A stretch of DNA of 64,000 nucleotides from the NCBI GenBank assembly GCA_021735655.1, contig JAIPGM010000001.1, positions 128,001-192,000 of the forward strand. The letters run 5' to 3'. The notes beneath the pieces were generated by a model. It ran no database searches and was not told the origin of the DNA. It saw only the letters and a program-made list of their open reading frames with translations. Origin of the DNA: Candidatus Omnitrophota bacterium. GTDB lineage: Bacteria > Omnitrophota > Gorgyraeia > Duberdicusellales > 4484-171. This document shows positions 516-36,500 of the stretch, piece by piece. A program made the position numbers and the translations under genes. Every line of letters begins with the position of its first letter. The first letter of the stretch is position 1.

Positions 516-3500
516 CCGCTTGATAATGGAAAATCTTTATCGAGACGTAGCTTTGGTTTTATGGTGACCGCTTTGGGAGTGGGGTCATTTTTGACTGTTT
601 GTTCTAAGTCCTCTGATTTGAAACCGGAAGGCAATCTCATTGGGACTGGACTCACAGTAGGATTAACTTTCGCTCCTGGATTAGGAAGAAATATTGGGGC
701 ATATGAGGAGACAGTATGGACTGATCAGGATGTTGAATTTTTATGCCAAGAAGCGAAATTGATCAGAAAATTATGGAATGTTCCTTTTGTTTTATTCTCT
801 GTTTATACTCCTCCGATTGCCGGTAGCAATTACGCTCAAAGTTATCGATGGATTAAGCAGATGCATGAAGCTGGAGTTCGTCTTTTGCCACATATCTCAA
901 ACTATGATGGTCGCTATCTTCCTTCACCAATCGATATTAATGCTTGGGGTATTTCTGGTAGGGAAAAGAACCTATACAAAGATTTTATTAGGGGTTTGTA
1001 TCATGAGTTTAGCTTACGCAATGAAGAGGGTATTTTTTCTGAAACTATTGTTGGTTGGAATGTTTTTAACGAATATGATTATTTAGCTGTAAATAATCCT
1101 AAATGGTTTGCCAGAACGGGCGAGATTGAGGGATTATTGCAGGGTCTGGATGAAGCTGGGATAGTTGATAATCAAGAAAGAACAAGGGTAATACACGGGC
1201 ATGTTATCGATAATATCCTTTTAGCTACAGAGGAAACAACTCGAGGCATTATTGGAGTCTATCAAGACCTAGGTCTTGATCCTAAGCCGATATATACAGT
1301 TTGGGCTGGATTGCCGACAACTGAACAGGTTGCTAAAGTTCCTTCTTTGACTGGTTGGTCATTTAATCGTTATGATAAACCAGGCCTGTTAGAATCTTTA
1401 GAAAATGCTGCTCAGATAGTTGGTGGTAAAGAAATAAATATCCATGAGATCGGGGAGAGTTCTCATGATGGAGAGGATGTTCAAGCGATAGAGCTGGCTA
1501 GAACATTAAATGAGATAGTTGGGGCAAGAGCAAAATTTCCGAATTTGCGTCACTTTATGTTTATGAGCGCTAACGATAATCACTGGAAACCGGAGCTAGA
1601 AAGCACAACAGCAGGATACCGAAGATTTGATAGACAAGGAACTCCTTTCTATGGTCAACATTGGGGATTGTTTGCGACAATATTTGATGATGATGGCAAT
1701 GCCATAGCAGTTAGGCCGAAGAAAGCTGTCGGTGCTTTAAGTGTAGAAATTAGTAAGCTGGCTAATGCAAATAAAGCTGGTCAGCCACTTGATAATGGCC
1801 GGGATAGCTCAGCATTAGGCTCAATTACTACTCGGATTAATGTTTCAGCCAATAACCATTCAGTACAATTACAGGGACATCAACATTTAGTGGTCATTGC
1901 TCCTTTCGAAGATTTAAATCAACAGGACAGAGCTACTTTAGATGAACTTCTTGAAACCAAACTACCAATTGGTGACTATGTATTTATCGGCGAAGGAACT
2001 TTTGGTCTGTTAATGGTTGCTAAGATGGCCCTGTTAAAAAATAGCGATATCCGCGATAGTCAGCTAGCCGAACATTTAGGAAATGTCATTGAACTGGCTA
2101 GCTTGATGAATCAAGGGCTTAGCTCAACCGGCTTAAACTTAGGTGAGCCTATAGCCGAGCATCTTAATCGAGTGGTTGAATATTTTCCTTTAACTAATAA
2201 TCAGCGGCTAATAGCCCTTATTCGTAATTTAGTGATAATGCATTATGGGGAACCAGTAATGTTTTTTACTCAGTTTGCTCAAGATCCCGGTCGCTTCCGA
2301 GGAGTTTATCTATCAACCCTTGCAACCAGTCCGGAGATCATCAACCAGATGGAAATACAATATCAGAGGCAAGTACCGCTTAATAACGGAAAAGATACCG
2401 CAAAATATGTTTCAACTAAAGCAGTAATCGTACTTGGTGTATCTGGTTCAGGAAAAACTACCTTTATTGATAATTTGCTTGATGATCGGCACGACCGTTT
2501 TATTTTCCCGCGACTTACTACTACCCGAAAACCACGCAGTGGAGAAACTGCTGATCGTTATCGAGTTTTTGTTAGCCAAGAATTATTTGATTCAAAAGAT
2601 CGGGCCGATCAAATGTTAATGGTAAGAAGGGGCCGTCATGGCGGCTATGCTTATGGGTTAGATAGAGGTAATTTGGATAGGTGCTGCGCCACCGGTAAAG
2701 CATTACTTTTTGATACAACTTCAATCGCTGGGGTAGAGCGAATAAGAGAAATTTTTCCTCAGGCTGAGGTAATCACGGTTATACCTAAATCATTCGATAG
2801 GCTCAAAATTTTAAGCGATGAGCAAATTAAACGTATTCTTGAGTCGCGAATGAAGACAAGACGCATGAGTAGGGTTGATACTGAAAAACGCCTTCAGGAG
2901 GCTGTAAATGAGCTTAAAAGATTTCCTGAGCTTAAACCAGAAGTGGTTGTTGTGAATGATTCAATTGATGACTTAGATGAAAATATGACTAGATTTAATC
3001 AGGCAGCCGTGGAGTTAGTTTCTAAAAATCAGCCGTTAGATAACGGAGTCGATGAAGCGCATTGGCGACACAATCTTGACTTAAAAGGTTTTACTGAATT
3101 TTCTGATGAATATATTGATTTTCTTAAGAGAGTTGATGATCGAGAGGCTAATGATGCCTTTTGGCAACCGATCGAAAGATTTAATCAAAGATTAAAAAGC
3201 AATAAAGCTTTAGCTAGAAAACTTTTAGATTTATCGCAGATAATGCTTGATCAGGAAGTTTCAGCTGCTGAGGCTTTAATTGAGGCCTTAGCGCAAGTTG
3301 ATAATCGTAATGATTCAGAAGTTGCCTTTGAACAGGTAATTGAACTAGCGGCAGTTTTCTTAAGAAGAAATTTTGACCCGAGGGCTTCGCTCATGCATGG
3401 AGTAGTGGCTATAGCCAGTGCGGCTAAATCAGCAACTGATTTAGAAAGTTGTTTGGCTCTTGCCTTGAACATAGCCGAAGATGCTTCTTGGGATTATCCA

Positions 3501-6500
3501 CAAATAAATTTTGCAATCCAGTTTGATATTCCTTTGATTGCTTTAGAAACTAATGATCCAGAGGTTTTAGCTACTCAGTTAGAGTTTTTAGTCAGCCGTC
3601 AAGGATATTCGCAAGCTCGAGCTTATGCCCGGACCCATTGGATGTATAATTTTAGAAGAAAAAATAGTTTTCGCACTACTGATTGTTACGAAGTTGGCCC
3701 AGATGGTCCAAATTGGAAAAAAGGTTATGTTCGCAGAGGATTAGTAGAATTAATTGCTTATAAAAGATTTATTAAAGCTATAGCTAGAGCACAAGAACAA
3801 GGATTAGGCATTGAATCTCGTATAGCTACTAAAGAAAAACAAGTTTATCGTGGTCTGGTTAGGGCTGAAACTCACAGTGATTCAGGCACCTATTATACTT
3901 GGGAGCAAGATTTAATAGTAGCCGTTTGCCCAGTATTTTTAAAAGAGACAGTAGTTTCTAAAACTGATCTGACCGGTCAATTTTTCCCCGGCTTATTAAG
4001 AGTCGAAAATGATCAAGATATTAGCTTATTAGATTGGCATGTTCAGCGTGTTGTTGGTCAATTCCAAAGTTGGGTTACACATAGGCATAGAAATTTTGAT
4101 CAATGGCCACGTTGTCGACGCGATAATTTATTGCTTGAAGCTTACTTACAGCACCAGATTTATGATACCTATAAAAAATTTGCCAGTATTTGGGCTCGGG
4201 CTTATCAAGAAGCATTCATTCCGCAAAAATATCCTAAGGGGAGTCAAAATGATAATCCAGTATATTTAGCTGCAGTTGAAGCAATTGCTTGGTTAGATCA
4301 GGTTGGTGGAGTTGCCAACGAGCAACGTTTGGCCAAGCTGGATGAGCTAGACGATAAACATCAATTAGGGAGATATCGAATATTACTCCAGAAAGCTTTG
4401 CTTGAACCTCAGACTACAGGAGTCTCGCAAGTAACTCAAAAAGTTATCGGAGAGGAAGGTATTTCTGGCAAACCTTTAGATAACGGGAGAGTAAATAAAG
4501 AAGAATTAGCGGTTACAGCAGTTAAAAGAGGGAACACCTCACCGTGGCTGGCGGGTCCCCTCTCTGCTGTAGCCCCTATATATATAGGTAAACAATCGCT
4601 ACCTTTGGATAATGGTAAGTCAATTCAAGAACAATTCATTGAAGATGTAATTGTTTTTTGGAAAGTTTGGGATAAACAATATCCTAGAGATATTGAATCT
4701 AGCATTTGCGTACTCGAAGGCGTAAAAGCTTTGAAAGCCAAAGGTTATATAGTCTATTCTGGCTCAGAGCATCAATTGAATATGGCAATTGCTGGTTTAT
4801 GGAGAAATGTTTCTGAAGATGATAAGTTTGCAATAAAAGAAGCTGTACGTTTATTGGCTGAAAATGTTAGACAACATGCTGACGATAGCGGAAGATTGAT
4901 AGCCTTTTTTGATCGTGAAGATGATGTGCTTTATTTAGCTATGGTTGATGTTGGTCCGGGATTTTTCCGTGATGATGAAGGAAGACCGGTTATTCGGAGA
5001 AAAGATGATCGGTTTGAACAACGTCCGGATTCTACCGGCAGAGGGGTTGGTTTAAAGTGGGTTTCAGATCAGGTAGATGATTTACAAATCCATACGGGTG
5101 GGCATGTTAGCCGACAGCCTAAACCAACAATTGAGTCCGATTCAAGGATAGAAGATCTTAAAGGAACTTTTGTTTTTACGAAAATAAATTTAGCCAGTCA
5201 AGCCAGGGAGCCTTTAGATAATGGTTATGGAGTTTATCAAGGCAGGAGACTATATCTAGCTGCTGATCCGGTTCTAAGTGGAGTTAAAAGTATTCGGCGC
5301 GTGAATTTATCAGGTCTAACCACCAAGAGACAAAAACACACTTTATTCACTAGACGAAAAATTCTCGATTTAGTGAGTGTCCATGCTTTAGCGGCGGCCC
5401 ATGGTTATTCTTGGTTAAATGATATAAATAATAGTTATGCTAAAAACCAAGCTGATGGTGAGGTTACTTATTGGTTTGAGGTTTATTATGCTATGCTTTC
5501 CTGGTTAAAGGGAGAAATTTATAATGCTGAAGGAACTCGCGATGAGGCACCTAGTCTTTATGTCGGCCAACACGTTGGGGCTGGATTTCAAAGTGATTTT
5601 CCAGAAAGAGAAGAAGCGAATGTAGCTATCGGAATTGATCCTTTAGAGGTAACTAACGGAGTAGTTTCAGCAAAATTTCTTGGTAGTACTGCTCCGGCAG
5701 TATACGCACCACGTGGTGGGATTATGAAAATAACCGATTTAGCTTATCTTTGGGCTTTATCGGTTGGTCCGGCCGCCGGAAATTGCGATTTAAATTTAAA
5801 CTACAGCGTTAGAAAAAATATGACTAATCTAGCAGCTAGTTTAGGTAAGAAAACAAGTCAGCTCAGAGGGGTAATGTTATTCAGAGAAAGGCATTCACGG
5901 GTTCCTTTGTTGCAATTGGTTGAAAGCGGAATGCAGATAGATGAAGGTGATTCAGAACTTAGAGAATTCTTAAATGAGGCCAAACGAATCGAGGATAAAG
6001 AAAAACAATGTCAGAAGCCAAGCCTGCAAGATTTTGATAGTTTGAAGCAGACTTACAAAGCTTTTGATAGCAAGGTTAAGGCAACTGGGGTTTATCAAAG
6101 CGGGAACCTTACCTTTATTGCTGACGGGAACCTTATGCCAGCTTTAGTGGCTTTAAAGAGAGGCTCGGCAGATTTTATTTTTGACTCAGGGGGAACTTCC
6201 GAAGGAATTATGGCTGCGGCTAATGTAAGGGCAATTGGTGGAAAAATGAGCGCCCGGATTGTGCCTTATCAGGCAATGGCTGAAGGAAAGCTTCAGGCAA
6301 ACTTAGTTAAAGATAAAGATAAATTTTTAGAAAATGAACTAGCTGAGCTAGCGAGATATGGTTTTTATCCTAAAACTTCAAGAAGAAAATTGCAGCGAGG
6401 GCAATATCGTCTTAATCATGTTTTTGATGCTACAGATTTAGTCAGTGCTGAAGAAGCAGTTTTCTTGGCAGCTCACATTAAAGATAGTCCTTGGGACAGC

Positions 6501-9500
6501 AGATTGAAGGGAGTAAGATTCGACCGTTCGAGTGGTTATTTAGTCGTTGATGTTGTGGTTAGTACGACTGCGGGTGAAGTTTCAGTTTATCGGGTAACTA
6601 TGAATACAAAAGTTTCAGACGTAGAATCAAAATACGATGCGTTATATAAAGTGCGAGGATTGTCATTTAGTAGAATTTTAGACATATTTGATGGTCGTAG
6701 TCAAGCTCAGCAATTAGCTACTGATTACTATGATTTAGCTAAGGCTCTTGGAATGTTGGGTTTGTTTGAAGATGCTATTGATACATTTAGGTTTTCCGAA
6801 AATTTAAGAAGCAGTACTTATTCTTTTAGATGTCGCGCTGCTCAATCTCATTTCTTGGGGATGAAAATGATTCTAGAAGGTCAAGCAGGCCAAAACGCTA
6901 ACGAAATTGCTGCTAAACATTTTGAAGATTCCTTAGAGAGGAGTCGAAAGAGCCGAGACCCACAGCTAAGAACTAGAGAAAGGCTTATTGACCTTTATAA
7001 ATTTCTTGGTGAAACTGCAGTGAAGAAGGATGAACATCAGGATGCTGAACGTTGGTTTACTTTAGCTTTAAGAAGAGACCCAACCAACAAAGAATTGCTA
7101 GATAAGCTTAATCAAATACAAGTTTTAACTAACCAGCCGCTTGATAACGGCAAAGCCTCCCTAGAAGACCAAGCAGCTAGACAGCCTCTTGATAATGGCA
7201 AGCCTACGATTTTTTCAATTTCACCACAACTTCAGGGCACTCCTTTAGGTGAACGGTTGACGCAGCTTAATACTCTTTATCAGGAAAAAGGTACTAACGA
7301 ACAAGGCGCTAGGGCTGTAGTTGAGGCAGTTTTAGTTGAGCCGGAAATAAAACTTGAAGTCTCCCAAAGAATAAGACAGGCTGATCGCTTGGAAGAGACT
7401 CAAGGTTTTTCAGTATCAAAAACTTGGGCTGATCGTCTAAAGGATGAAGTTTTGAGCCGTTCAGTTGAAAAGTTAGTTGACCGGGAGATTTTCATATTTC
7501 AGATGGAGTATGAGTTGTCGGTGGGATTCTTGCAGGCTTTTTATGATTATCAGATTAGTTTAATGCGACAATATCGTAAGGCTGAGCTTGAAGCTGCTGA
7601 TAGCTTGGATCAGCAAACCGCTCTCGAAGCTGAAATAAGAAGAGATGCTACTCACAATACTTCCCAATTTGCTAAATTGCTTATGGCTGGTGGACTAGGA
7701 AGCTTTAAGCCGGATTTAGTCCGCGGCTGGTATCGAATTATTAAAGAATACCGTAGTTTAGCGGCTGCCCGAAATCAAATTCATGTTATGGGCATATTGT
7801 ACTCAAGTGCAATCAAGGGACAGCAGGAAAATCGAGGCTTGATGCAACTTAAGGGTCCAGCTCAGATAGCTGATAGTGATATTATCGAAACAGTTATCAT
7901 CAATCGAGCCAACCCTCAAAATGGTATGCTTGAATTAGTCGATACTTTTGAAGGGCCTGTTCCTGAATTTGGTATTGGTCAGTTAACCATTGAGTTATAT
8001 CGTAACCCACATTCTGAATTACAGGAATATTGGCTATATTGTCCGTCTCAGGTGGTTCAGGATAAATACGACGGGACTAGTGAAGTTGTTGAATGGTTGG
8101 AAAACGGAAGAGTCGTAGTTAGGCAAGCTCAAGTTTTCAATGAAGCTTATCCGGGAGAAACCTCTGATTATTGGCGGGCAGTTCAATCTTTAGTTTATCG
8201 CCGAGTTTGTTTAGAATTCATTCGTCGCGGTCAAGAGAATCGAAGGAATCATGAAAAGAAGCGAAAACCGCGCTGGGGAACTTATTTTGTCGGTAAAAAA
8301 TTACTTTTTTCAACTAGCGAAGTTAACACTACTTTAGTCATTCCTCAAGTTATCGAAGCTCAATACGGCCAGGTAGAAGATAGTCGGGGAAAGAGGGCAA
8401 AAAGAGTTATTCGCGGTGATAATTTTGCCAGATATTCTGGTTTTCGCGACGTAGTGGTTCATCATTATAACCATACGATTGTTCCAGCCGGCATGCCTTA
8501 CTATCCGCAGGATGCTGAAAATGACTTTTTTACTGAATTAAGCATTGCTGAACGATTCCGTCCGGCTATCCATGACGGAAAAATTGATTTAGTAAAAATA
8601 ACTGGTCAGGTCAGCGATGTTATCACTGGCTGCTCAACCATGCATACCCGGATTTTACGTGAGGAAATATTTGCTGAGTTTGCCGAAAAGGTAGTTGAGG
8701 ATCCTTTATTTGGTAATAGTGAAGGTTCAGATCTTGAGCGTTGGCAGGGAAGAAGAATCCAGACCACGGTTGCCCATTATCGAGATCAATTAGGGGTAAC
8801 CGGAAGCCATCAAGAGTTTTTCGCGGCTTTAGGCAAAGTTTCCGACGGACAACCAAGGGTCAAGCGAGACTTCATTGCAAGTATTTTACGTGCTAAACAT
8901 AAACAAAAAGAATTATTTGTCCGAAAGCTATTTGATGGTACTTTTGGCGATCTGGGAGTAACGGAAGCGGAGTTTAAAGCTGCCGGAAAATCTATCTTAG
9001 ATATGCCATTTTTTACTTTTGTCCGCCGTTTTGTTGATTATAAATGCCCCAATCTTATCATTGATATGCTGTTTAATAAAGAATATCGCGATAGAATTGT
9101 TGCCGCTAACGCCGTAATTTTAATCGGTGGTCGCCGCTTTAGTTGGTTTTTTGAAAAACAGCGTGAACGGTTACGTCAATTAATAAGACAGGATCCGAGA
9201 ATGAGATTTCATGTTTTATTTATTGAGGAACATAATATACATACCTCTCCGATAATGCAGCAGGGCACTGATTTTGGCGGAATGCTTTCCTGGGAAGGAA
9301 AAGAAGCCGGCCCAACTAGTTTTGGTAATGCTCAACAAAATGCTTCGCCGACTATTGGAACCTTAGATGGGGTTATCCCAGAACGTTTGAGGCCGATTGT
9401 GCGTGGCCAACAGGGAGAAATCATTAGTGGAACCGGATATGTTGTTGAATACTCACAGGAGCGTAAAGGTGGAGTAAGAATTCCGGATATTAATTCGTTA

Positions 9501-12500
9501 GTGCTTCAAATTGAACAAGCCAGCAGAGACTACGCCGATAAATTAGTTTATGGTCAAATTGCCGTAAATGCTTTAGCTATGGGCATGACCCAAGGCGATA
9601 TTGACAATCAGGCCAAGGGCTTAATTGCAGTTTGGGGGAACTTATTAGAGCAAGCAAGGCCAGCGGCTGTACCTTTAGATAATGGAAAAGTATCTAAGGC
9701 ATCCATAGGTAATAGAAATTTTGGCCAAAAATTATTTAATTTTTTAAAATGGTTTATTGCTCCAAAAAGTCCTAAAATGCTTCAGTTTCTTACTGAGGCA
9801 ATTGTAAATACTACTGGTTTGTCAGCCGATATTACTCAAAAGTTAGAAGAAATAAGAAGGCAGATCGAACAAGCTGAAGATAAGAAAGAGCCTTTAGACA
9901 ATGGTCGGGATAAATTAAGCCCTAGAATATCAAAATTGCTTGCACAAGGAACTGAAGATCCTCAAGTGCAATATCAATTACTAGAGATTATTCGCGCCCA
10001 ACAGCAACCAGTAGTCGGGATGATGGATAATTACCATTTAAATGGTCAAAGGGTTCGCTTTGCGCCTGAGGAAAGTTTAGCTGTAGTCGCAGAATTTGAT
10101 CGTGGTAGTTTTAGAAGAGCATTCAGTCCAAAATTAAGGACGATGATTATTGAAACTCATCCCGATGATTTAATCATTCATGCCGGTGCTACGGCAAATA
10201 TGTTTGTTAGTGAAACTAGGGGAATGATAACTGAGCTTATTCCGCAATATCCGGGATACCGCAATAATATGCCAATTTTTGTTACAGCAGTTCCTGATCC
10301 AGCCGGAGTAACTGATAATTTTGCTTTTAATTTTTTCCAAGGCAAATTAACTTCTTTGGAGGCGGCAAAAAGAGAAGTCCGGGCCCAGGAAGCGATCTTA
10401 AATGCTGGTTTTATTGGTTGGAATCAGACTGGCAATGCCAGTGAAAGGCACATTAATCTTGATTTAAGATTAAGCTTGATTAAAGCAGTCAGAAGGCCGG
10501 ATGGAAGCCTTGATTCTTATCGTAGTGTTTTTCAGAGATTAACTAAAAGTGAACTTGAAAAAATTGACGCTGTTGTAAGGGAGAATGCGGCTGATCAATA
10601 TTTTATGGTCCATCCGTTTAGCAATCATCCACACCATCGGGTTGTAACTCATGCCTTTTTAGAAGCGATTTACACTCACAATCCGCAAGCAACTATATAT
10701 TTTTGGGCTAATCAAGAAGAACACCAACAGTTAATGACCCAGGCTAATGTATTTTTTGTTTTTAGTGAGGGCATGGAGAATTGGAAAGGGTTAATTATTT
10801 TTAACGGAAACCATTCGCAAAATGAACGCCGAGGCGGAAATGGTGAATATTATTGTGATGCTGCTCGGAGTATGGATTTAGCTACCTGGGAAAATTTACA
10901 AGAAAGACTTGCTCGAGAGGAAACTAGTTCGGTAAATTTAAATAGTTTACCGCTTTGGCGACCGCATGCAGAAAGATTTGTAAAGGTAAGGATTGAGCCA
11001 GTCGGTCAAGATGTCCTGAGCACTCCTTTGGATAATGGGAAATCAACTAAGCAGCCAGAGAAAGAGGTAGTTTCTGATTCCCAAAACGATTTTTCTTTAG
11101 AGCAACTGAAAGCGCTTACGGTTGGTAGCCCTAATCTTTCTTTCGGGGTAGGTATTTTAGCTCGTCATCAAGAGGTGGATTTAATTATTCAGGCTTTTGG
11201 TAAGAGAATAATCAAGCGCGGTGCTTTTTACCAGACAAGACCTTGGGAGGAAACCTTAAAAACCGATTTAGCTTCACCTAACGCAGCTAAAGTAGATTTA
11301 GCCATTAAAACATTAGCCAGTTTAGGCGGAGATTACGCGGCCAGAGCTAGGCGCTTTGAACAAGATATAACCGTAATTGAAGTCGACCTGCCAACCCATT
11401 TTCTTTTATACGGCCAGGATTTAACCGGCGAGATTTATTATCAGCTTACTCATATTGGTCTTGAGCGAAGAATAATTTATCTTCCAAGTAAATATCTAGA
11501 GGATGCAAGTGGACCAGAGTTTGTAGCTACTATTTTTAACCACGATCAAAGCGAGCTTGAGGAGTTCATTCCTTTTTTATTAAGTGGCCGAAATATCACC
11601 GATCAAATGGTTGAGCAGGCTCATCAACGGGCCATGCAAGACGATCCTTTTGGTGTTTACCCCCAGGTCGATGACTTGCTTTCTGATATGCAGGCTTATG
11701 ATGATATGTTTACCCAATCGATGGTTGTAGCTCAAATTGCTGCCGTAGATTCAGCTGTTACTACAAAGAATCGTCAGCTATTAGATGCTTTAGCCTCCCG
11801 CACGCCAAGTGGGCCAGAAGCCTTAAAGGCTAAAGGCCTTTTATTTGAACTAGCCAACCTTGAAACTAAAATTGGTTGTTTGTATGAGGCATTAGGCCAA
11901 AGAAAAAGTGCAATCAGTCATTATCGTAGCGGCGTAGCCGCATTGTCCAGAGTCTCAAAAACAACTATAATTGATACTGGTTTGTTGCCGCTTCAATTAC
12001 AGGTAAGAATGCTTTACCTCTATGCTCGCGAAGGCATGTTTGGCCGTCTTCGAAGTGGTTTTCGTAAATTTTCCCAAGTTAAAATTGGTCGCCAAGCTGA
12101 GGCTTCTGAGGTTGAGCTTTTTGAATGGTATATGGATAGCAATTTTGTGCCGGTAAGAAGAGCTGTGGTTGGAATCCTGCGGCATCACATTACTTGTGGG
12201 CATAACAACTACCCTAAAGATCAGGTAATGACTACTGTTAGATATATTGAACAGTGTCAATATATTCCTTCGGATATAACCCCACGTCTTAAACCAGCTT
12301 ATCTTCAAATTAGAAACACTCCAAGCTTAGCTAATGTTTTTTCAGCCGCCGAATATTTTAGGAGACATAAAGTTCCCGGCTGGGATAAGGTTTTAGCTAA
12401 AACCTTAGGCGGTAATGGCCAGATGGAGGAAGAATATTTGGGTGAATTTGTTGAAGCTAAAGCAGCTGAAGATCAAGTTTGTTATTCGCGGGTAATCGAG

Positions 12501-15500
12501 CTTAGCCTTGAGGGCCACGGTCCAGAGATAGATTTTGTACTTGAAGTTGATCGGGCAAAGTATCATCGTAACAATCAAGGGCAATATGGTAATTTAGATG
12601 AGGGAATTTATCTTGGTGAATCCAAGACATTTAATCGACAATTTAACTTAGATTTGGTTACCGAACATACAATTGATGATAAACAAAGCAAATATCGTTT
12701 AGTGGCCGCAAGGTTAAATAAGCTTCCCGATCCAGTTTTTAACGGCCGCATGAAGGGTATTGTTTTTGCTATGGGGGGAAGCTCGGTTACGGCAGCGGGA
12801 GTTCTAGAGTTTAGGTTAAGACAAAGAGAAGTGGATGAGGGATTAGAAACTTTGAGCTTAGTTGAATATGTAGCTTACATCCCGGATACTATTGATGCTG
12901 ACGAAGAGATAACTTTAAGTGTTAAGGAGGAAATTTATATTATTAAATGGGTAAGAGAGTTAGTTGAGCGGGGAGTAATTGAAGAAAATGAGGTTACCCG
13001 CGTTGAGCGTGTATTTATGGAAATAGCTTCAACTAGCAGCCGTTATGTATTACAAAGTATAGTTTGTGCAAAGTTAAGAGAAAAAACCGGGGAAGGTGAT
13101 ACTTCTTCAGCCAAGCGTCAGTCAGAACAAATTTGGCAAGAAATTATAGCTGAGCTAGAGGCTGAAGCTTTTCCAAATCGAAAACCACTTGATAACGGCC
13201 GCGATGGTCAAGCTGATTTAGCTCGTCAACAGTTAGCTGAAAGTTTGAGAGGGCGCTTGACCGGATTGCTAGATTCTGGTCTTAATCCGGAAAATAGCCT
13301 ACTTGTAACTCATGTTGGTCGACCGAATAAGGCTGGCACGCTTAGGGGTTTGGGTTTACGAGTTTACGAGATGGTTATTCAAGGAGTCAATAAACTTTAT
13401 TATGACCGACGGACTGTAAGAACCATCCCTTTATTTTCTAATAGTTTAGATTGTCCTTATCCTGGTGGTTATCATTCCCAGGGTGGAATGCTTACACCGG
13501 AGGCTAGGCAGGATATTGTTAGCCGGGGAGATGTTTTTATTCTAAGCGGAGGTGAGCTTGAAATATGCTTGCAGATGACTTTTAGCGAATTAATCGATGC
13601 TTTAAATCAAGCTGGAAGAACTACGGTGATATTTGTTCCGCTTGAAGCAACTAGTAGATTTATAAATTTAGAGTCGGCAACCGGCTATGCTGATTATTTA
13701 AAAAGCCGAGCGATAAGCTATGAAGAGTATGATTTTACTAAAAACGAGGTAACTCTAGCTCAACCGGCTACGCCACAGGTATTATTAGTTTGGACTAAGA
13801 CCGCTCAGGAAACTCTTTATTGGTTAGATTTCATAGCTAGGCATCAAAGACTTGTTGCTGAGAAACTTATTGAATCTTTGGGCTCAACTGAGGCAAATGT
13901 ACGTAAAGATGCCGCCGCTAGAATAATTACTATTGCTAAATTAATTGGTCACAACCAAGAAGATAATATATTTGGTCGTCATCCTTTAGATTGGCTTTAT
14001 GGTCATGATGACCATCGCCAGACTACGCCGCAAGAACGCAGGCTTTTATCGGAAGTTTCTTGGTTTCCTTCTGATGCTGTTCATCGAGATGAGGAGCAAG
14101 TACTTTTAACCAATCGCCGAAGAGTAAAAAGCAGAGTAACTGAAGTAAGAAAATCTTTAAGAAATAGGATTTTGTTTGACGTTAAGGCAAAATTGGAATT
14201 ATTAAAACAGCGTTTAGCTGATTCTGAAATTCAGGCTGCAGTAGATTTGGTAAGCTTTGGCTTTGATTCAAGTTTACCGGATCAAGGATCACGCAAGATA
14301 GCTGTTCTTAGAAAATTAGAGAGAAATCTCCAAGAGCTAACTACCCAGATAGAAAGGGCTAAAGCTTCTGGTAGTATTGGAGTGATAATTGTGCCTTTAA
14401 TTGATGAGGCTTTAAGTAGTCTACGGCGGCACGTAAATACGATTAGACATTGGTCGGATTATAAAAAAGGAAGCTATGTGCTTAGGCAGTTAGTTGATTG
14501 GATGGTTCGAAAGCATTTTGAGCCGCAGCATGCTCAATATCGGCAGATAAAATCAGCTAAAGTTTTGGGACGAGTCGATAACGGAGATGAAAAATTTTGG
14601 CAACTTCCGATTTGGCCGTTGGCTGATAACGGTGAGGTTGATTTAGGCTTAACTGGCTGGATGCTTACTTCGCGACAACGGGCTCCGCCAGAATATTTTC
14701 AAAGAAGAAAAGTTTCCCTAGCCGAATTAGCTGGTTTAAAACCAATCCAACTTACCTTATTTAATCTTGATGATTTTACTGGTTCTGGGCAACCCTTAGA
14801 TAATGGCCGAGTGCCTCTCGATAATGGTAAACCTTTATTAGAAAATAGAGATAAACCTAAAGAAACAGGCAGCCACCTTAGAGTAATGCTGGGTTTTCTA
14901 AGTCCGATCAGAGATGAAACCAAAATAGATGAACCCTTGAGTATTTCCGTGTTAGCTGGAGTATTAAGAGATGAGTTTAAGGGCACGGTAGACGTTGCCA
15001 CGGTCCACCCTCTTGTTGAAAAGGGAGGCCTTGAAGGGGTAAAGGAAAGGATAAGAAAAGAACAGCCGGACATCTTAGGATTATCTTTGTTTTTTGGTAG
15101 TTTAGATTATTTAAGAGAATTAATGGCTTATATACGTACTTTGCCAGAAGAAGTTAGGCCTTTAGTGATACTTGGCAATGTGTTGGCTAAATATAATTTA
15201 GGATTGATTTTAAAGGAATTTCCAGAAGTTGGAATTTGTACTGGAGAAGGAGAAAATACTATACGAGATTTTGTGCGTTATTACCGGGGGGAGATGGGTC
15301 TTTTGCAGATTACCAATTTTGCCTATATACATCAAGGGGTACCGAGAGTAAATTTACCTCAACAACGCACTGATTTGTCTGATATTGGAATGCCTCAGCG
15401 GGATATTTTTTCTCACGTCATCAGAACCGGCGGGGTCGTATTTTTAGAAACAAGCCGTTCTTGTTCGCATAATTGTGCAATGTGTAGTCGTAAGACTTAT

Positions 15501-18500
15501 TTGGAAGGAGCAGAATTTTCTCAAGTAGGTTGGCGTGGACGTCCGCTTGAGGATGTCATAAGAGATATGGCTGATGTAAGTCGTCAAGGAGCCAGATTTG
15601 TTAATTTCGTTGATGAAGATATTTTTGGTGGAGGCCTTGTACGGGTTATGGAGCTTGCCCAGAGAATTATTTTTGCTAAGGCACGAGGCGAGATTCATCC
15701 CGATTTAACCTTTGGCAGTTCAGCTAGCGTGAGATCAATCTATGTCCAACCAGAAGGTGATACTAAAGCTAGGGCTCAGATTGAAGCCGATAACGAGCTG
15801 AGGATAGAGGCACTTACAAGATTAAAACAAGCTGGCTTAGTGGTTTTATTTACAGGTATCGAGTCAGGTTCTCCTACTCAGCTTGCTCGATACGGAAAAG
15901 ATGCCACAGTATTTGAAAATGAAATGGCCTTACGGATAATCGATGAAGCAGGCATACACAATGTTCCTGGTTTTATTATGTTTGATCAAAAGGTCACAAT
16001 CGAGGAGCTGCGAGAGGATATTGCATTTTTACGAAGAACCGGGATGGATAAAAAAATTACCTATCCGCTTAGAACTTACTATCCTTTAAGGGGTGCTATG
16101 TGCACTGATCAACTGGTGGTAGATGGTCTTGTGGATGCAGAGCGATATAATGCAAGTCAGTTAGCCTATGAATACGTTTATGAGGATCAAGATGCTGCTA
16201 CTTTGTTGTGGGCTTTAAAATCTTGGGAAAAAAGCCAAATGCTATTCTTTTGGATTATTAAGATAATTTTTCGTTCTTCACGGTTTGGTGAGCTATCACC
16301 GGAGACACAAGCATTATTCAAAGAGGTTATGGCTGATCAAACTGTTATTTTACTTGATTATTTGGAAGATTTAGTTAATTGCTCATCAAGTTCTCAATAC
16401 CCAGAGATTGATCTTAGATATAGTGATAGATTAATAAATACCATGCTGTCTATTTTAGGCTTAATTAACGAAGGTCAGCTATCTATAGATGGCTCACATC
16501 TTTCGGAAGTTATTTACGGAAGCATAACCAGGGAAATCGTCCGTGTGCATCTTTTACATTTGCCATTTACTTTAAATGATATTTTTGAAATGGTAAAAGT
16601 AAGGTTTGGTGCTGAACTTAGTCTGCCTATGCTCAAGAGAGCTTTAAGCAGCTTTGTGAACGAGGGCGCTATGGAGTATTGTGAAGGCAGGTATTCATTA
16701 ACAGCTAAATTTTGGGATTTAAAAGGAATGCCTTATTATGATTTGCCAAGACCATACCGAGGAGGCGAATCTAACCTTGCTCAAGCGAGTTTACCAGTTC
16801 CACATCTTGATGTATTTAGGCAAAGAGCAGGCATTTTAGAGTTAGAGGTAGCTTATAACCAAGTCAGAGTTTTTGGGGAAGTATTATACGCTGCAGTTGG
16901 TTTTATCCTTTTTGCTATAGTTGGTGTTTTGATTATCCATACTTTGGCTGGAGGGTTTGTGGTTGGCTTTTTCGGATTAGTTATATTTGTTTATTTTTAT
17001 TCCAAATCGTTTCCTAAATCAAAATATAAAATAGTTGAGCAAGGGTTGAAAATGTTTAGTGGTCAAAGAATTGGTAGCCAAGATTTCATAAAACTATCTT
17101 TGGTGTTTAGGGACCTTTTAGCTGATGATTGCGATAATATAATAATACAACTTCTTGCTCGATCGGGAATCGAAGCAGCTAATGAGCTTGCCCAGAATAG
17201 GTACCTAGAGGAAACCTTGGGCGTGCAGTCTCCCCTTGATAATGGTAAAGATCCCTTTCTTACAGTCGATATTAGCCAATTGCCAGGAATGCTGTTAAAT
17301 AGAAATTATCAGAAAGCAATTGCAATATTTGAGAGCTTAGACGTTTTTAAAGACGGTGACGCTTTGAGAGACTTGCTTTCTGGCTTCAGGGAAATGTATG
17401 AAAATAATTACGATTTCAGGTCACGTCTTCTAGAATGTTTCATCCATTTATATGAAACCCAGCGCCAGCAGTGGTCTAAGGCCGAAAGAACCTTAAGGGT
17501 AATCTATGAACAGCAGACAGCTGAGGAAGATTTATCTTTGCTGTGGGTGAGGAAAATTGCCGTTGATATTTGGTCTGAGATTGCAAGTAGAGAGATAAAA
17601 CTTTCTGATGAACAAATGGTACCGGTTGAACAGGTAGGAGTTGATCTACAGGTAACTGAGGTCTGTTGCTATGAGTGTCCTTGGTGTTTATATCATCACA
17701 CGCCAAAAGGCCCGGCCCGGAGAAACCTTCACCGTTTAAGCGAAGCCGAGGCCGTAGACATAGTCAGTCAGTTTATGGAGGCAGAAACCTTTTCTTTGGC
17801 GCCGTTTAGTTTCACCGGCGGGGAACCTTCAATGAATCGGAAAGTTTTATTTGCTGCTCTTGAGGCAGCTACCCGACGTCAGCAAGCTGGATTTATTAAT
17901 GTATTTAGTAATGGTATTTGGGCTCGAGACGTAGAGGCTGCTGAGCGTATGCTAAACGCTCTTGCTGAGAAAGCAATCATCAGACTGGTTATCAATAGTG
18001 GGCTTTTGCCCGAAGGCCTTGAGCGGATTAAGCATATTGTTGACGCTTACGGCAGATTGGATAGTTCAATACAATACCGCATAGAACTTGGTATAGCCGT
18101 TCCTTTATTGGGCGATGAGATTATAACTTATCTTGAATCAGTGCGGCAAGCGCTTAAGGGAAAATTTCTTATTCAGCCGTCTAATGGCGCTATTACTGCC
18201 GTAGACATGTTTGAAATGTATCATTTAACAAATTGTAAGGTTGGTATTCAATTGTCTAATAGTCGTATTCTCATTATACATCCTGAATCGATTGCTATAA
18301 GTCATGCTAATAAGGGTCGCCTTGCTTTAAGAGAAAAGCAGATTGAAGCTTACCGGCTTAACCGCCCGGTTTGGTCGTCATGGCAAAGCAATGGGTCGCG
18401 CTATGTGCAATTTGTGGCGCAAAGTGACCTTTGGGTTTTAGCTAATCCTTTTTTCTGGGGCTATGGCAATCCTCGGCAGTGGAGTTTTGATTTTATGAAT

Positions 18501-21500
18501 GTTAGTCAGCTACATGAAGCCTATCAGCGTGATCCGCTTTGGCAGATGCTTTCAACTGTGCCAGCCGAGGAGATTATAGAACAAATGCGGCAGCTTTTTG
18601 TCACAGTCCCTCAGGGCGTTGATCGTTGGTTATCTGGTCTTCATGCGGTCCATCCGATTGCTAGCAGTTTTGCCGCTGAACTTTTACAGGATTCGCGCGT
18701 GCGTTATTGGCTAAGAAGATGGCATAGTGGTGATTCAGTTAATGAGCCATATCCGGAGTTATTGATGCCGGAATTAAGTCAAAAACAAAATTCACCTAAA
18801 TCAATTCCTTTGGATAACGGCCGAGTGCCTCTTGATAATGGTAAACCGTTCATGCAAAAGTTTAAACCTTCAGAAACTCTAGGCTATTCAGTGATTAACG
18901 GTCCTAGACATAGAGTGATGATTATTAATGTTTTGCCGCAAGATAAACAAGCTTCTTTAGAAACTCAAACTCAGAGCATAATTTCACAAGTAGATTCAGC
19001 CTTAGCTAGAGAGGGTTTTAATAATAGTGATGTGGTTAAACAGGATATGTTTTTACGTGATCCGAGCCAAAGACCCGAGGTTAAAGAAATGCTAGGTAAT
19101 TATTATGGAAGGGCGCCTCCGGCAACCAGTTTTATTCATCAGCCGCCGATAACCGGTGAGCTAGCTGCTACTGAATTGATTGTCATTAAGGGGGAGGGGG
19201 TCCAAGTCTACCGAGTAAATAAATATGCAACCTTAATTAATGCTGACGGACTTTGGATGCTTTATGTGGCTGGAATTGAACCGGATGCTAATTTAACTGA
19301 TACCTATCAGCAGGCCTATAATACTTTTTTAAAGTTACAGACTGTTTTAGAAGAAGTTAGGCTTGGCGCGGTAAGCTTTAAATTTGAAGATGTAATTAGA
19401 ACCTGGCTTTTTGAACGTGAGATAGTTGGTTTTGATGATCAAGAAAAAACTCAAGAGAGATATCAAAAGCTTAATCAAGCCCGACGCGTTTTATTTGATA
19501 CGGCTGATTCTGGATCAGGGGTTATTTTTGGCCGTCGTCTGCATTGTCCATCTTCTTGGCTTCTTTCCTGGCGAACGAGGATTGCTTTTTGGTTTTTAAA
19601 GTTTTCTTTTACTCATCGAATAAAGAAATTCGAAAAAATATTATTCAAATTAGCCCGAGTCAGGCCTCCGGCTTCAACCGGAATCGGTGCTTTGCCGGAA
19701 TTTCAAGCCCAAGGAATAAACGTTGCCATTGGTCCGGCTTTTGTTTTTGAAGCTTTAGCTTTGTTCGCTGAAAGTAATCGAGGCGATGTTTTAATTCAGT
19801 TTATTGAAAACCCCGAACAAACTCCGGCTCATGCTTATTCCAAAAAAGTATTACCCAAGGGAGAAAAGAAAAAGAAAAAAGCTTCCCCGGCTTTTAGCCG
19901 TGGTATGGCTGTATTTATGGATTACATTTGGATAATCATTTCTGGAACAGCTTCAGTTAAAGGTGAAAAGGTAGTCTCTGTTGGTGATGTAAGAGGTCAA
20001 GCTGAGACCACGATTGATAATTTAAGATTAGTAGTTGGTCAGGCTGGAGCCCAGTTAAAAGATATACCGCAATTAAGAGTGTATATCAAGAATTGGCAGG
20101 ATTATCAGACTGTAAGGTCGGTAGTTGAAAAGCATTTTCCCGATACTCCGGCCCTATATCTTTTGGCTGATGTCTGTCGGCCAGAGTGGTTAGTTGAAAT
20201 TGAAGCCATGGCTTTTATTCCTCGAGAAGAAGGGGTTTCTAAGCCTTTAGACAATGGTAAAAATAGAATTCGGCAAGGTGAGATCTGGTCTCCTCACCGT
20301 GGCTGGCGGGATCCAGCTCCCTTGCCGGATTATATATCTGTTCCGCTCGACAATGGCAAAAGAACTCTAGATTCATTGCCAACCAGACTCAGGGTTTTCT
20401 TAAGACTTAATAATATTGATCCAGCTAAAACTTATTTATTTGCCATGAGCGGCGGTGATTGTGCCGGGCCAAATTCAGCTTATTATGGTGCAGTTAGAGA
20501 GGCTGATAAATATGGTTATAAAGTATTAGGGGTGTTGAATGGTTTTGAAGGGTTAGGGGCTAATCCGGATTTATTCGTTGATCAACTTATTTATATTACT
20601 TCCGAAGGCATTGAGCGATTAAAAGGAATGCCGAGTATTCATGTTGGGTCTTCTCGGGCTAAATTTAAGGATAAACGCGAAAATATTTTAGTTAATTGCG
20701 CTGCTTTTGCCGGAGTAATTTTTGTTGTTGGTGATGACCATTCTAAGCAAACCGGCGAGCTAGCTGAAAGCGGCATAGCAACTATAGCTATTCCCAAAAC
20801 TATTGATTATGACTTTTTGGCGGAATCTTTAGGGTCACATAGTGCTATTTCTGAGGCCCGGCGACTTTACCTACGGGCTCATCGCATGGCCCAAGAGGAT
20901 CATTTTGTTCAAGTTATTGAATTTATGGGACGTGATGCTGGCTGGCTAACCTTTTTGGCAGCTCAGCAGGTTGCTGGAGCTAACTTTATTCTTCTCCCGG
21001 AAAAAAGCGCTGGCTTTAAGGATGTTTTAATTAAAGCTTTGTCAGTTATTTTAGAGGAAGGTTATTTGACTATCGCTATGGCTGAAGGTTATAGCTTTAG
21101 AGATTTCCAGGAAAAAGATCGTATCTTTGGAGGGCCGCTGTTTTATAAATTCTTAGATATTATACCGTTTCTTAAGGCTAAATTTTATTCTAAAGGCCAA
21201 ACCGATGTACATGGTAACCCCAAATTATCAGGAATAGCTGAGTACTTGTCTTTAGCTATTCGTTATTTGCCACGCTTGGCCAAGCATGATGCCGATATAA
21301 ATAGGCTTTATCAAGCGATTAAACTTAAGTACCCACATTATTTTGGTACTGACTTGCGTTATAAGGCTAAGGGCGAGGTAATGCAGAATGTTCGTTTATC
21401 GATTTTAGGCTATATTTTAAGAGGCCTTCCTTCAGATGATTACGATACTAGATTGGGAGAGGCTTATGGAAGAGCCGCAGTTAGGTTACTTCAGGCCGGA

Positions 21501-33500: not shown

Positions 33501-36500
33501 GAAATAGCTTTGTTTGACGAAGCCAGTATCGGAAATTTTGAACGCCTTGAGCAGGATGGTTACTTTGATGGACTTGATTTATTTTTTGCCGAAGACCCTC
33601 AGATAGTCGGTCTAATACCATTGATCAGGGCTTTTTATCCAGAGGTTCATCTTGCTTGGCGTTGTCATATTGACACCTCTACTCCTAATCGTCAAATTGC
33701 CGAATTTGTTAGCGATATGGTTAGCGGCCGTCTTGATCCAGTACGGGATAAATTACTCTATGACTATCTTTTAAAGCGTTTAATGAGAGAGGGTATGATT
33801 GGAGCAGCAGTTGATTTTGAACAAATGATGCAGGCTAATTCCCTTTCGGTTAATCTTGCCCAAGTTGCGACTAGAAGATTGTTGGCCGATATAGCTATTT
33901 ATCACACCGAAGAATTTGCTTTAGGATTACATCTCCAAACTAAAGGCGTGCCAACCTTTATTATGCCTCCGGCAATTAACCCTTTTAGTTATAAAAATAT
34001 TCCCCTAGCTGATAATTTTATTCGGGCAACTATGGTTAAATATGGTTTAGATCCCAATAAATTTACGGTTGTTGAAATATCACGTTTCGATCCTTTTAAG
34101 GGGCCGCTGGAGGCCATTCAGGCTTTTGTGCGTTTATTTTTGGATAATCCGGGATTGCAGAATGATTTACAATTTGTTTATGCCGGAAATATGGCTGACG
34201 ATAACCCTAAGGGAAAACGCGATTTTGAAAAGATCGATGCCTATTCTCGCTATCTTAGAAAGAAATTTCCTAAACTTAGGAAAGCCTTGTTTTTGCTCGG
34301 TCTTGGGAATAAACCCGGGACAGTAGCCTTAAATTGGGCCCAGAGACGCAGCTTGCGTGTTGGTGGTCAGTTTGCTCGGCCATTTTCTCGGAAAGAGATA
34401 GGTCGACTCAACGGTGTTGAGATAAATGCTCTTGAGGTTAATGCTTTACAGCAACAACTTGAGATGGAAAAAAGAGACGGTAGGTTAGTTATTTCTTTAC
34501 CGCGTAAAATAGCAATACAGCCTTCATCAAAAGAAGGTTTTGGCTTAGTGGCGGCTGAGGCTACCGGAAAAGGTACTCTGGTTATCGCTTCTTTGATCGG
34601 TGGCCTTAAAGCGCAATTAAAGGATTTGCTTGCGCAAGCTTCTTGGTTGGGCATTAACTATACGCCGGAGGAAATTAGTCAATCTTTAGAGGTGTATGAC
34701 TCAATGGATTCTGATCAGCATAGAGGTGTTGTTTTCGATGTGGCTTATTTGGAAAGAATTAATTTATATCAACGGCTTAATCAACGAGAATTCGTTTTGG
34801 GTTTAGCTACCTCTCTGCGGGTGGCTTACGAACTGGCTCATAAAAATCCAGATGTCTATCGAGAGCTCGGTTTAGCTGCACGTTGCCAGACTTTAGATAA
34901 GTTTATTACTCTAGCTAATGTTGAGAACCGCTTAGCCGCCGCTTCCTTGATTGTTGATAATCAGCAGCCCTTGGATAATGGTAAGCCAGAAGTTCCGATG
35001 CCTTCTTCTTATTGGATCGATCATAGCCTTCTTCATGAAATTGATAATGTTTGGGCTAACTTGGATTGGATTAATCCCGGGCCAAGTTTAAGCATAGCTC
35101 GCCAGATTGAGAAAAATTTTAAGCCAGCACAAGAGCCAGGTTTTTTAAGAGTTAGCATAGATGCCTTTGGTCCGCTTAACGGATTTAAAAATCAAGTATT
35201 AGCTGAACATGAGCAGTATTTTGATTCCGAGGTTTATAAAGATTATCGAGCTGGCATAATTCATGCTATTGATAATCTTTGGCAACACGGCGGAAAGTAC
35301 GGTGCCTTATTTTTGATGGCTCAGCTTAGAGGACGAACCGTACGCTTTACTTATTGTTTGCTAGATCGCGGTGATGGTTTTATTAATGACGATTACAACC
35401 ATGTTCGTTTAGAAGAAGCCGTTCAGGCACATAGAACATTTAAACGAGCCGGCAAGAATGGTATGGGCCTTTATTATATGGCGATAAAGCCGGATTATTT
35501 TTCAATCACCGCGGTTAATTGCTACCGGGCTGTTGCCACAACTCAAGCTCACTATTGGGAAACTGGCTACACTAAAGAATGGCCGTTTTGCCCGCAACAA
35601 ACTCCGGTTAACAAGGGGGTGCGGGTGATTTCGGTAAAGGATGTAGCTTTAGGCCTTTTGCCATTTTCGAATATGCAGCCGTTAGATAATGGCCGTCGAA
35701 CTGATGAAGAACGCCTGGATTTTATCGGATTTTTAGTTGAGTCATATTTAGAGGCTTTATTTACTTTCCGGAGGTTAAGAGCAAATAACAGCGAAGTAGC
35801 CGAGATGTATCTGCCAGCAATTTCCGAAACTGCCGTTAGAAAGAAACGAGCCAAATGGGTAGTTACAGCTGTTGAGGTTGCCCGTGAGGCATTTCAGGTT
35901 ATGGCTCGAGCTGATTTTCGACATTCATCCGGCTTAACCATTCGTTCAATCTTTGATTCAATTTTGGCTTCTGGCGGTCGCAACCAAGCAGCTAATGATC
36001 TAGGAGTCGATCGCGCTAGCCTTACTCGCTGGATGCATAGCTTACCTAATGATTTATTAGGTGGGTTAGATCCAGAATTAGCAGTCTTCAAACAAAGAAT
36101 CCTTGATTTATTTGATGAAAACAATACTCGACCCCTAGACAACGGTAAAGAAAATATAGATTTATTAGCGGTTACAGCAGTTAAAAGAGAGGACACCTCA
36201 CCGTGGCTGGCGGGCCCTCTCTCTGCTGTAGCCCCTATATATATAGGTAAACAGCAGGGGCCGCTAGATAACGGCCGAGCGCCTTTGGATAATGGCCAGC
36301 CAGCTAACTTTTGGAAAGTTTTGCATTCTGGTATATACGTACTTCCGATATATTACACTCGACTTTTCGATACAGCTAAAGACGCAGGAATTGGAAAATA
36401 TACTTATGTAGTGCCGTTTGTTCGTGATCATGTATTGTCTTTAGGCCATCAAGCGATACTTTTCTTACCGTTTTCTTTGCAGTTACCTTGGTCGCAATCT

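Follow-up and report, generated by a model that had tools for sequence, protein, structure and literature searches.

Repeated hairpins inside or beside bacterial genes offer the closest comparison for the element described here. The Rickettsia palindromic elements (RPEs) are short palindromes within coding genes that do not interrupt the host frame and add residues to the protein where these are tolerated, and SPRITE of S. pneumoniae, the Correia elements of Neisseria and the REP/BIME sequences are repeated hairpins that can resemble Rho-independent terminators, contain promoters, serve as RNase III substrates or alter the stability of the host mRNA (PMC10969869). The setting of our element is a gene of a class described for the Omnitrophota, the multi-enzyme or Archaeovorin-like giant genes (10.1101/2023.11.21.568195, 10.64898/2026.06.07.730766, PMC10066038). 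We analyzed 64,000 nucleotides of a Candidatus Omnitrophota genome (assembly GCA_021735655.1, contig JAIPGM010000001.1, positions 128,001 to 192,000 of the forward strand; the window hereafter), in which a first-pass annotation of the bare sequence had pointed to a short element in three copies, A, B and C. Copy C turned out to be a complete copy of a sense-strand RNA hairpin that is conserved in Omnitrophota giant genes at module boundaries. As judged by the sequences scanned, the element appears to be previously undescribed and known only from Omnitrophota giant genes; a full-text literature search with the core sequence returned nothing relevant, and the giant-gene papers cited above do not mention the hairpin. 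The parts of the three copies, in window coordinates, are as follows.

20244 to 20261, forward strand: upstream linker PLDNGK, which ends the RidA-like (L-PSP) module, with Pfam PF01042 just upstream
20262 to 20342, forward strand: copy C micro-module of 27 codons, NRIRQGEIWSPHRGWRDPAPLPDYISV, from the translation and the linker positions
20269 to 20329, forward strand: copy C hairpin, minimum free energy -34.8 kcal/mol, z -3.8; 76 bits and E 5e-19 with covariance model R2
20269 to 20278 and 20320 to 20329: copy C outer stem, TTCGGCAAGG paired with CCTTGCCGGA
between the two arms of the outer stem: copy C inner stems GAG/CTC and CTGG/CCAG, with the conserved tip at the apex
20292 to 20310, forward strand: the 19 invariant nt at the tip of copy C, CCTCACCGTGGCTGGCGGG, translated as (S)PHRGWR(D)
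20330 to 20342, forward strand: U/A-rich tail of copy C, TTATATATCTGTT, with 7 T in the 12 nt after the stem
20343 to 20360, forward strand: downstream linker PLDNGK, which starts the phosphofructokinase (PFK) module, with Pfam PF00365 just downstream
4491 to 4601: copy A micro-module, with linkers at 4473 and 4602
4511 to 4574, forward strand: copy A hairpin, core at 4537-4555, 91 bits, tail CCTATATATATAGG
36150 to 36260: copy B micro-module, with linkers at 36132 and 36261
36170 to 36233, forward strand: copy B hairpin (repeat family D8), core at 36196-36214, 88 bits

The 19-nt core is identical at 4537, 20292 and 36196, with 0 occurrences expected by chance, and TATATAT lies about 20 nt 3' of it in all three copies, so that the shared core and tail of the original description are borne out. 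Widened to 21 nt (CTCCTCACCGTGGCTGGCGGG, 20290-20310), the core recurs with one mismatch each at 4535 and at 36194, and 0 matches turned up in shuffled versions of the window. An identity of 19 nt that is not of low complexity also disposes of the concern that the similarity might be limited to a low-complexity stretch of 12 nt or less. In the window a PLDNG[K/R] linker stands on either side of the element, as had been seen for copy C, and this copy does form a module of its own, but its length is strictly 27 codons, the 28 first counted for it including the Lys of the first linker.

Each copy is a hairpin of 60-90 nt with the core at its tip, with a stability of -35 to -55 kcal/mol and, for the window copies, z of -2.4 to -3.8; the hairpin is present in 11/11 copies, including those from other contigs that are introduced below. 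The stems of A and B are made of GGTTACAGCAG..AGAGGG paired with CCCTCT.CTGCTGTAGCC, copy B differing from copy A by one compensatory pair, G-C to A-U, while in copy C TTCGGCAAGG..GAG..CTGG pairs with CCAG.CTC.CCTTGCCGGA; the stems of C have no sequence in common with those of A and B, and the pairing is kept, with 27 stem pairs outside the core (z -4.2). A covariance model built from A and B found C at 39 bits, and the second model, R2, run on the window with filters off, found exactly the three copies (91, 88 and 76 bits for A, B and C) with the next best match at 12 bits, on the antisense of C; the window copies scored 76-91 bits in sense vs. 9-12 bits in antisense. After realignment of a 5-sequence set, 97.3% of the cells paired, vs. 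39-56% when the partners were slid, and 17 of the 23 pairs had changes on both sides, a level reached by 0 of 500 shuffles. This covariation alignment was fitted to the model, although it is consistent with single-sequence folds made independently and with the slid controls. The guidance by the model mattered for the stems, as MAFFT with RNAalifold on 10 copies misaligned them because the bulges differ among copies. Across copies the stem comprises 19-36 pairs and the structured tip 20 nt; the invariant 19-20 nt of the tip (A-CCUCACC-GUGGCU-GGCGGG) form a helix of C-G, C-G, a bulged U, C-G, an A·C mismatch, C-G and C-G that closes on the hexaloop GUGGCU, and in the fold of copy C this is a small irregular helix with the same hexaloop.

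Copy C had been called partial, which is right for its primary sequence and wrong for its structure: with 76 bits in the model search and stems of its own, it is a full structural unit. Copy C is not a truncated derivative of A or B but a separate, complete and older lineage, with the copy at another locus, L012, as its closest relative. In its general plan, a freely varying paired stem that carries an invariant bulged upper helix and hexaloop, the element is reminiscent of iron-responsive elements, SECIS elements and phage coat-protein operators; it differs from them in having no sequence similarity to any, in having a partner that is putative and in its place in the mRNA of a bacterial giant gene.

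Exact scans with the 19-mer gave 20 loci from a one-genome-per-species set and 24 loci from metagenome contigs (numbered with the prefix L), and most of these were chance occurrences. Taken by itself, the fact that the 19-mer turns up 37 times by chance in the high-GC genomes of these two large collections could be held to mean that the window matches are fortuitous as well. The chance loci lie in DNA of 51-74% GC and have no enclosing hairpin (flank-to-flank duplex z -1.6 to +2.8), whereas seven real loci lie in low-GC DNA with z of -3.5 to -8.7; this flank-duplex test separates the two groups cleanly, in contrast to the model score alone, for which copies of the L001, L002 and L018 type (25-33 bits) overlap the chance core matches (23-29 bits). 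The real loci yielded eight further copies, all within stop-free giant open reading frames (ORFs) on contigs of Omnitrophota type, for 11 in total. Three of the loci, L001 (two copies, a and b), L002 and L018, are in Candidatus Omnitrophota metagenome-assembled genomes; L025 and L035 are both on one 105-kb contig, and L032 is the seventh. L012 (CAZFML010000019.1) is labelled 'uncultured Planctomycetia', and its giant ORF is of Omnitrophota type and orthologous to the window; the label may be a binning or taxonomy error. The stop-free frames at the real loci measure 1-10.9 kb and take up the whole locus in each case except L032, whose ORF ends about 540 nt after the element. The core is identical in 10 of 11 copies across 7 loci, with the reservation that scanning for exact matches favours copies whose core is unchanged; the second copy of L001 is slightly diverged (ACCT-ACCGTGGCTGGCGGA) and shows ACCGTGGCTGGCGG to be the hardest part of the core. 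The linker motif is recognisable at nine copies, with the hairpin starting a few to about 25 codons after it, and L012, L018 and L032 have no second linker. Two further searches added no copies: a 14-mer scan of viral contigs gave chance matches only, none with the hairpin, and a protein search for giant relatives with the RidA-like module, copy C and the start of PFK returned 3 ordinary RidA-like proteins and no giant ones. The three window copies are spaced almost equally, by 15,755 and 15,904 nt, and a filter-free model search of the window revealed no fourth copy near 52 kb; this regularity is unproven and may be a coincidence, the two L001 copies being only 1.7 kb apart.

The peptide encoded by the element is irrelevant, as the same bases are read in all three frames. 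Copy C carries SPHRGWRDPAPLPDY where A and B carry SPWLAGPLSAVAPIY, one base apart, with the core in phase 1 in C and in phase 2 in A and B, which is the difference in phase that the first-pass annotation had noticed. Over all copies the core is read as SPWLAG in A, B, L012, L018, L025 and L035, as PHRGWR in C and L032, and as LTVAGG in L001a, L001b and L002. Three unrelated peptides from three frames leave next to nothing of the idea that a conserved peptide motif is at work, and together with the shuffles (0 matches), the covariation and the flank-duplex test they rule out this explanation and the chance match alike. The comparison of copy C with its ortholog is telling in this regard. L012 carries the element after the same RidA-like module (66% amino-acid identity), for which the nucleotide identity to the window by codon position is 0.74, 0.82 and 0.51; in the element itself 19 of 19 core positions and 16 of 16 outer-stem positions are identical and the frame is different. 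The two inner stems differ by indels, with the pairing built anew (GACGG/CCGTC in L012 vs. GAG..CTGG/CCAG.CTC in C), and it is because these indels shift the phase that the core is in another frame in L012. Preservation of core and stem despite the change of frame and only 51% identity at third positions is direct evidence of selection on the bases and their pairing and not on the peptide. The proposal that the sequence acts as DNA or RNA is thus upheld on three counts: 1) the stems covary; 2) all three frames are used; 3) the core is identical in the L012 ortholog.

Translation constrains the element only in that the frame must remain open and in register. Over the 104 nt around each of the 11 copies, the host frame has 0 stops in total, the +1 frame 16 and the +2 frame 25, so that the element is not intrinsically stop-free and only the frame in use is kept clean; the stop-free frame runs for kilobases to both sides of the copies. 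The earlier claim that the frame is kept open is therefore sustained for the set of copies, and is weak for copy C alone because two of its three frames are open. In having 11 of 11 copies in stop-free host frames the element behaves as an RPE-like in-frame palindromic repeat, but it departs from RPEs in several respects: 1) an RPE family encodes a conserved peptide in one fixed frame, whereas SPWLAG, PHRGWR and LTVAGG come from the use of all three; 2) RPE copies are similar over their whole length, whereas conservation here is confined to the 19-nt tip, with stems that covary; 3) the present element has terminator-like A and U flanks.

A hairpin that is translated through also brings to mind the short, structured, non-protein-like inserts of T4 gene 60 and of the yeast mitochondrial 'byps', and one may ask whether the element is a translational signal, causing a pause, a frameshift or a hop from linker to linker that would leave the micro-module outside the product. 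The very stable hairpins (-35 to -55 kcal/mol) would suit such a role, as would the bracketing of the window copies by two near-identical linker codon strings, possible take-off and landing sites. Bypassed inserts, however, need be neither open nor a multiple of three in length, while all 11 copies here are both, open and in register; no conserved slippery site and no stop follows the first linker, whereas in bypassing of the T4 gene 60 type a stop usually comes after the take-off codon, and the second linker is absent in L012, L018 and L032. In copy A, moreover, the two linkers use the Gly codons GGG and GGT, and these are not read by one tRNA. We consider a bypassing or frameshifting role highly improbable.

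Copies A and B are about 95% identical over roughly 90 nt amid neighbouring modules that are unrelated, and one contig carries near-identical copies in two places, L025 and L035, with each of which L018 shares different flanks. This is what one would see if the element were a selfish mobile palindromic repeat, of the type of a miniature inverted-repeat transposable element (MITE), RPE or SPRITE, copying itself into tolerant linkers, with the tip as the recognition site of a mobilising enzyme. All copies sit at module junctions, right beside which the module order differs among relatives, and precedents exist in the in-frame palindromic insertions of Rickettsia and the terminator-like mobile repeats of pneumococcus (PMC10969869). 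The anatomy of the element speaks against such an origin: MITEs are defined by terminal inverted repeats and target-site duplications, whereas here the stems differ completely among lineages, with no conserved terminal inverted repeats, and the loop is invariant, which is the reverse of a MITE. No target-site duplication was seen, in that the flanking linkers match each other in 13, 13 and 14 of 18 positions vs. a mean of 12.9 for random pairs. SPRITE, Correia and REP elements likewise differ from the present one in being intergenic or at gene ends with conserved inverted repeats, and Correia elements have TA target duplications, while ours is inside an ORF, with a conserved loop and no duplication seen. 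The near-identity of A with B and of L025 with L035 would fit a recent spread, but the copy number is low, with only 3 copies in the 64 kb of the window, and no transposase was seen nearby. Finally, the C and L012 copies have been kept at the same site past third-position saturation with compensatory changes in their stems, which points to long-term purifying selection and not to decay. Overall, we think a mobile repeat unlikely.

The next consideration is the strand on which the element acts. Owing to G·U pairs (0-8 per copy), the sense fold exceeds the antisense fold in stability by 7-14 kcal/mol in 6 of the 8 copies from other loci, and the window copies are strand-neutral or have a slight antisense preference in fold energy; taken together, the modelled folds favour sense RNA. 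A site that acts as DNA, for recombination, nicking or replication on a cruciform or single-stranded hairpin and used for shuffling of modules, could account for the position of the element, which adjoins synteny breakpoints in both ortholog comparisons, window/L012 and L001/L002. A conserved loop on a variable stem is also the pattern at the nick sites of the HUH endonucleases of rolling-circle systems. Apart from the G·U pairs, which make the sense strand the more stable one in most copies and thereby indicate RNA, this explanation meets the difficulty that module order changes at linkers everywhere and not only at the element; it gives no role to the U-tract and A-tract flanks, and no recombinase or HUH gene was seen. 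A role at the level of DNA is in our view very improbable.

The flanks of the hairpin are skewed in composition: over 7 independent copies, T is in excess in the 12 nt after it (45 vs. 24.1 expected, z 5.0) and A in the 12 nt before it (41 vs. 25.1 expected, z 3.8). The TATATAT of the window copies is the local form of this general U-rich tract after the hairpin. A GC-rich hairpin followed by a U-rich tract and preceded by an A-rich tract is the layout of intrinsic terminators and attenuators (RAT/BglG-type, PyrR, T-box), in which a conserved sequence on the terminator could be the binding site of a regulator, and in one lineage the context is leader-like, with promoter, hairpin, Shine-Dalgarno and ATG in this order. 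The differences are in size and place, with a stem of 19-36 pairs and a tip of 20 nt vs. the usual 5-14 pairs and 3-8-nt loop, with (UA)n in the window copies, and with a location in a translated frame and no match to an Rfam leader family. We surmise from the folds and flanks that the element looks like an intrinsic terminator or attenuator with a large invariant tip. In the lineage just mentioned, the features around the hairpin are as follows, in the coordinates of the respective loci.

L018 2392 to 2420, reverse strand, and L035 about 3345 to 3385: promoter-like sequence within the giant frame
L018 2087 to 2320, reverse strand (5915 to 6148 in reverse-complement coordinates), and L025 304 to 540: ORF off the giant frame

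The promoter-like sequence is a near-consensus sigma-70-type promoter, TTGTAA-N17-TGTTATAAT, that ends 7-9 nt before the hairpin in L018 and L035; it is kept between these two and absent from L025 and the window copies. In L018 and L025, an AAGGAGG (Shine-Dalgarno) and an ATG lie 3' of the hairpin and open a 77-78-codon ORF off the giant frame. The substitutions between the two versions of this ORF fall 3, 5 and 12 on codon positions 1, 2 and 3, a pattern that suggests protein selection on it at those loci; it has no Pfam or NCBIfam match. An in-frame restart, that is a Shine-Dalgarno with an in-frame start after the element, was found at no copy, the Shine-Dalgarno-plus-ATG sites of L018 and L025 being out of frame. 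In the window, the counts from terminator and promoter scans showed no excess over shuffles.

With its TTGTAA, 17-nt spacer and TATAAT (with TG) 7-9 nt before the first stem base and its U-run after the hairpin, the L018/L035 arrangement amounts to a complete small transcription unit, and the duplicated unit that these loci have in common includes the promoter. Antisense and kissing-loop RNAs typically show this combination of a conserved apical loop with a variable stem. One could accordingly read the element as a small RNA gene, or as a processed small RNA of about 65-95 nt, within the giant ORF and acting in trans, the tip being its seed or a protein-binding surface. The other nine copies, all three window copies included, have no convincing promoter, though, and a complementary target of the tip was not found in the window within 3 mismatches. 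Complementarity to E. coli rRNA was no better than that of shuffled sequence, and the confinement to giant ORFs would be left unexplained. We judge this reading to be distinctly unlikely. A pairing with or mimicry of rRNA had also come up from a 6+6-bp complementarity to the 530 loop of 16S rRNA seen by eye, and was dropped as unconvincing vs. the shuffled controls: with E. coli as a proxy for Omnitrophota rRNA, 9, 49 and 43 of 300 shuffled cores did equally well or better in duplex energy with 16S, 23S and 5S rRNA, respectively, and the best ungapped identity to rRNA was 10-13 of 20. Nor did known RNA families yield a counterpart; a search of the window against Rfam 15 at gathering score found no match, a search of L001, L002, L012 and L018 at E<=1 found none either, and searches of 200-nt pieces gave chance hairpin matches only, at 10-17 bits vs. 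gathering scores of 35-99.

We favour, with a rough probability of 0.42 and hence tentatively, the reading that the element is a terminator-like RNA punctuation signal to which a factor binds, with translation simply passing through it. On the giant transcript it would act as an attenuator or as a hairpin that forms and stabilises 3' ends. The hairpin and U-tract might stop or pause RNA polymerase, most easily where no ribosome trails closely behind, and the invariant tip could be where a conserved partner docks and decides the outcome; this partner might be a regulator, an RNase or RNA polymerase. The linkers on either side would let the meaningless peptide be tolerated or trimmed off.

Several points weigh against this punctuation signal. 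Termination, processing and the binding of a factor are all putative steps, and the invariant tip, the most conserved part, is not needed by a terminator and is explained only by way of the postulated partner. The window tails are of the (UA)n type with no clean U-run, which makes for a weak terminator at best, and a tip of about 20 nt is far above a normal terminator loop; a scan for consensus terminators (loop 3-8 nt) made no call on the element, although such a simple scan is blind to it because of its loop limit of 8 nt. A terminator within an ORF would create mRNAs without a stop codon that need ribosome rescue. The roughly 95% identity of A and B amid unrelated modules suggests recent copying, which also fits a mobile element, and the sample is small, with 11 copies in about 6-7 independent stem lineages.

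The host of the three copies is laid out in the window as follows.

1 to 63038, forward strand: one stop-free frame, already open where the window begins and over 21,000 codons long, closed by a stop codon at 63036-63038
1 to 63038: about 63 modules set apart by 62 PLDNG[K/R] motifs, e.g. at 516, 1785, 20244, 20343 and 62805

By stop count, the other five frames of this stretch have 1,100-2,500 stops each. A profile search placed about 19 different Pfam enzyme families in the host frame, all in that one frame, including PCMT, guanylate kinase, GlpX, phosphorylase, two radical SAM domains, RidA/L-PSP, PFK, TreT, GH77, Bac_transf, Glu/Leu dehydrogenase, PLP decarboxylase and GH100. One ORF that tiles so many unrelated enzyme domains makes the window part of an Omnitrophota multi-enzyme giant gene. 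The comparison with L012 gives an idea of how such genes change. L012 has, in this order, a phosphorylase, a transmembrane module, the C-terminal half of what in the window is a 714-residue module, an unknown module, the RidA-like module, the element and a methyltransferase-like module, while the corresponding part of the window (7185-20342) contains six additional modules among these and continues with PFK behind the element. Module order is shared only in part, and modules of giant genes are apparently gained, lost and split where the linkers lie.

The linker motif PLDNG[K/R] itself is evidently selected as a peptide, because all six Leu codons occur in it and Arg is encoded by both CGN and AGA, and from its sequence it looks like a cleavage or separation site. 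A full-text search for it returned nothing relevant, the giant-gene papers do not describe it, and neither linker nor terminator motifs are mentioned in that literature where we looked for them. Relatives have variants of it, SLDNGG[K/R] in L012 and xDGGx in L001 and L002. Tandem linker doublets with a single residue between them occur in the window at 14793-14831, 18807-18845 and 36261-36299, twice as PLDNGR-V-PLDNGK-P and once as PLDNGR-A-PLDNGQ-P; the first two are 83% identical over 53 nt, and the third lies directly 3' of copy B. These doublets could be empty sites or footprints left by lost micro-modules. Another micro-module between two linkers (47661-47726, QTISHFRSGEGQSRTGPTSRNF) contains a perfect 10-bp hairpin, UUUCCCACUU-CCG-AAGUGGGGAA, which has no conserved core and an overall z that is not significant, and the short micro-modules at 7155, 33054 and 61281 are unstructured.

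Two further observations concern the giant gene and its surroundings. Within the RidA-like module, KKKKK is coded by aagaaaaagaaaaaa (window 19845-19862), and the peptide is kept in L012; in an ORF of such length, an A-rich tract of this kind could cause slippage or stalling. The gene that begins 77 nt after the giant ORF (window 63116-64000) was identified by eye as a peptide-type ABC transporter substrate-binding protein with a signal peptide, and the giant ORF of L032 is followed by a PilZ-like gene and an Opp-type permease, again by eye, so that giant genes and peptide uptake may form a conserved synteny.

The element bears on the question of how bacteria transcribe, translate and process genes of 60-440 kb. 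A bolder extension of the punctuation reading, which we regard as improbable, is a 'stop-codon-free operon', in which giant genes would be transcribed in segments that are ended or cut at the hairpins, a conserved factor reading the tip would set how far polymerase reaches, proteins would be released at the PLDNG[K/R] linkers, and the hairpin peptide, along with any rescue tag added at stop-less 3' ends, would be discarded. If true, this would be a new way of organising gene expression and would answer whether giant genes are expressed as single units. The element is the first conserved nucleic-acid signal that we could trace within giant genes, lying at module boundaries and having the appearance of a terminator with a recognition surface, and it is an unusually clean natural case of a sequence conserved across three reading frames. 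For experimenters it is a defined sequence to work with, and for annotators its structure model is a means of finding the internal boundaries of giant ORFs.

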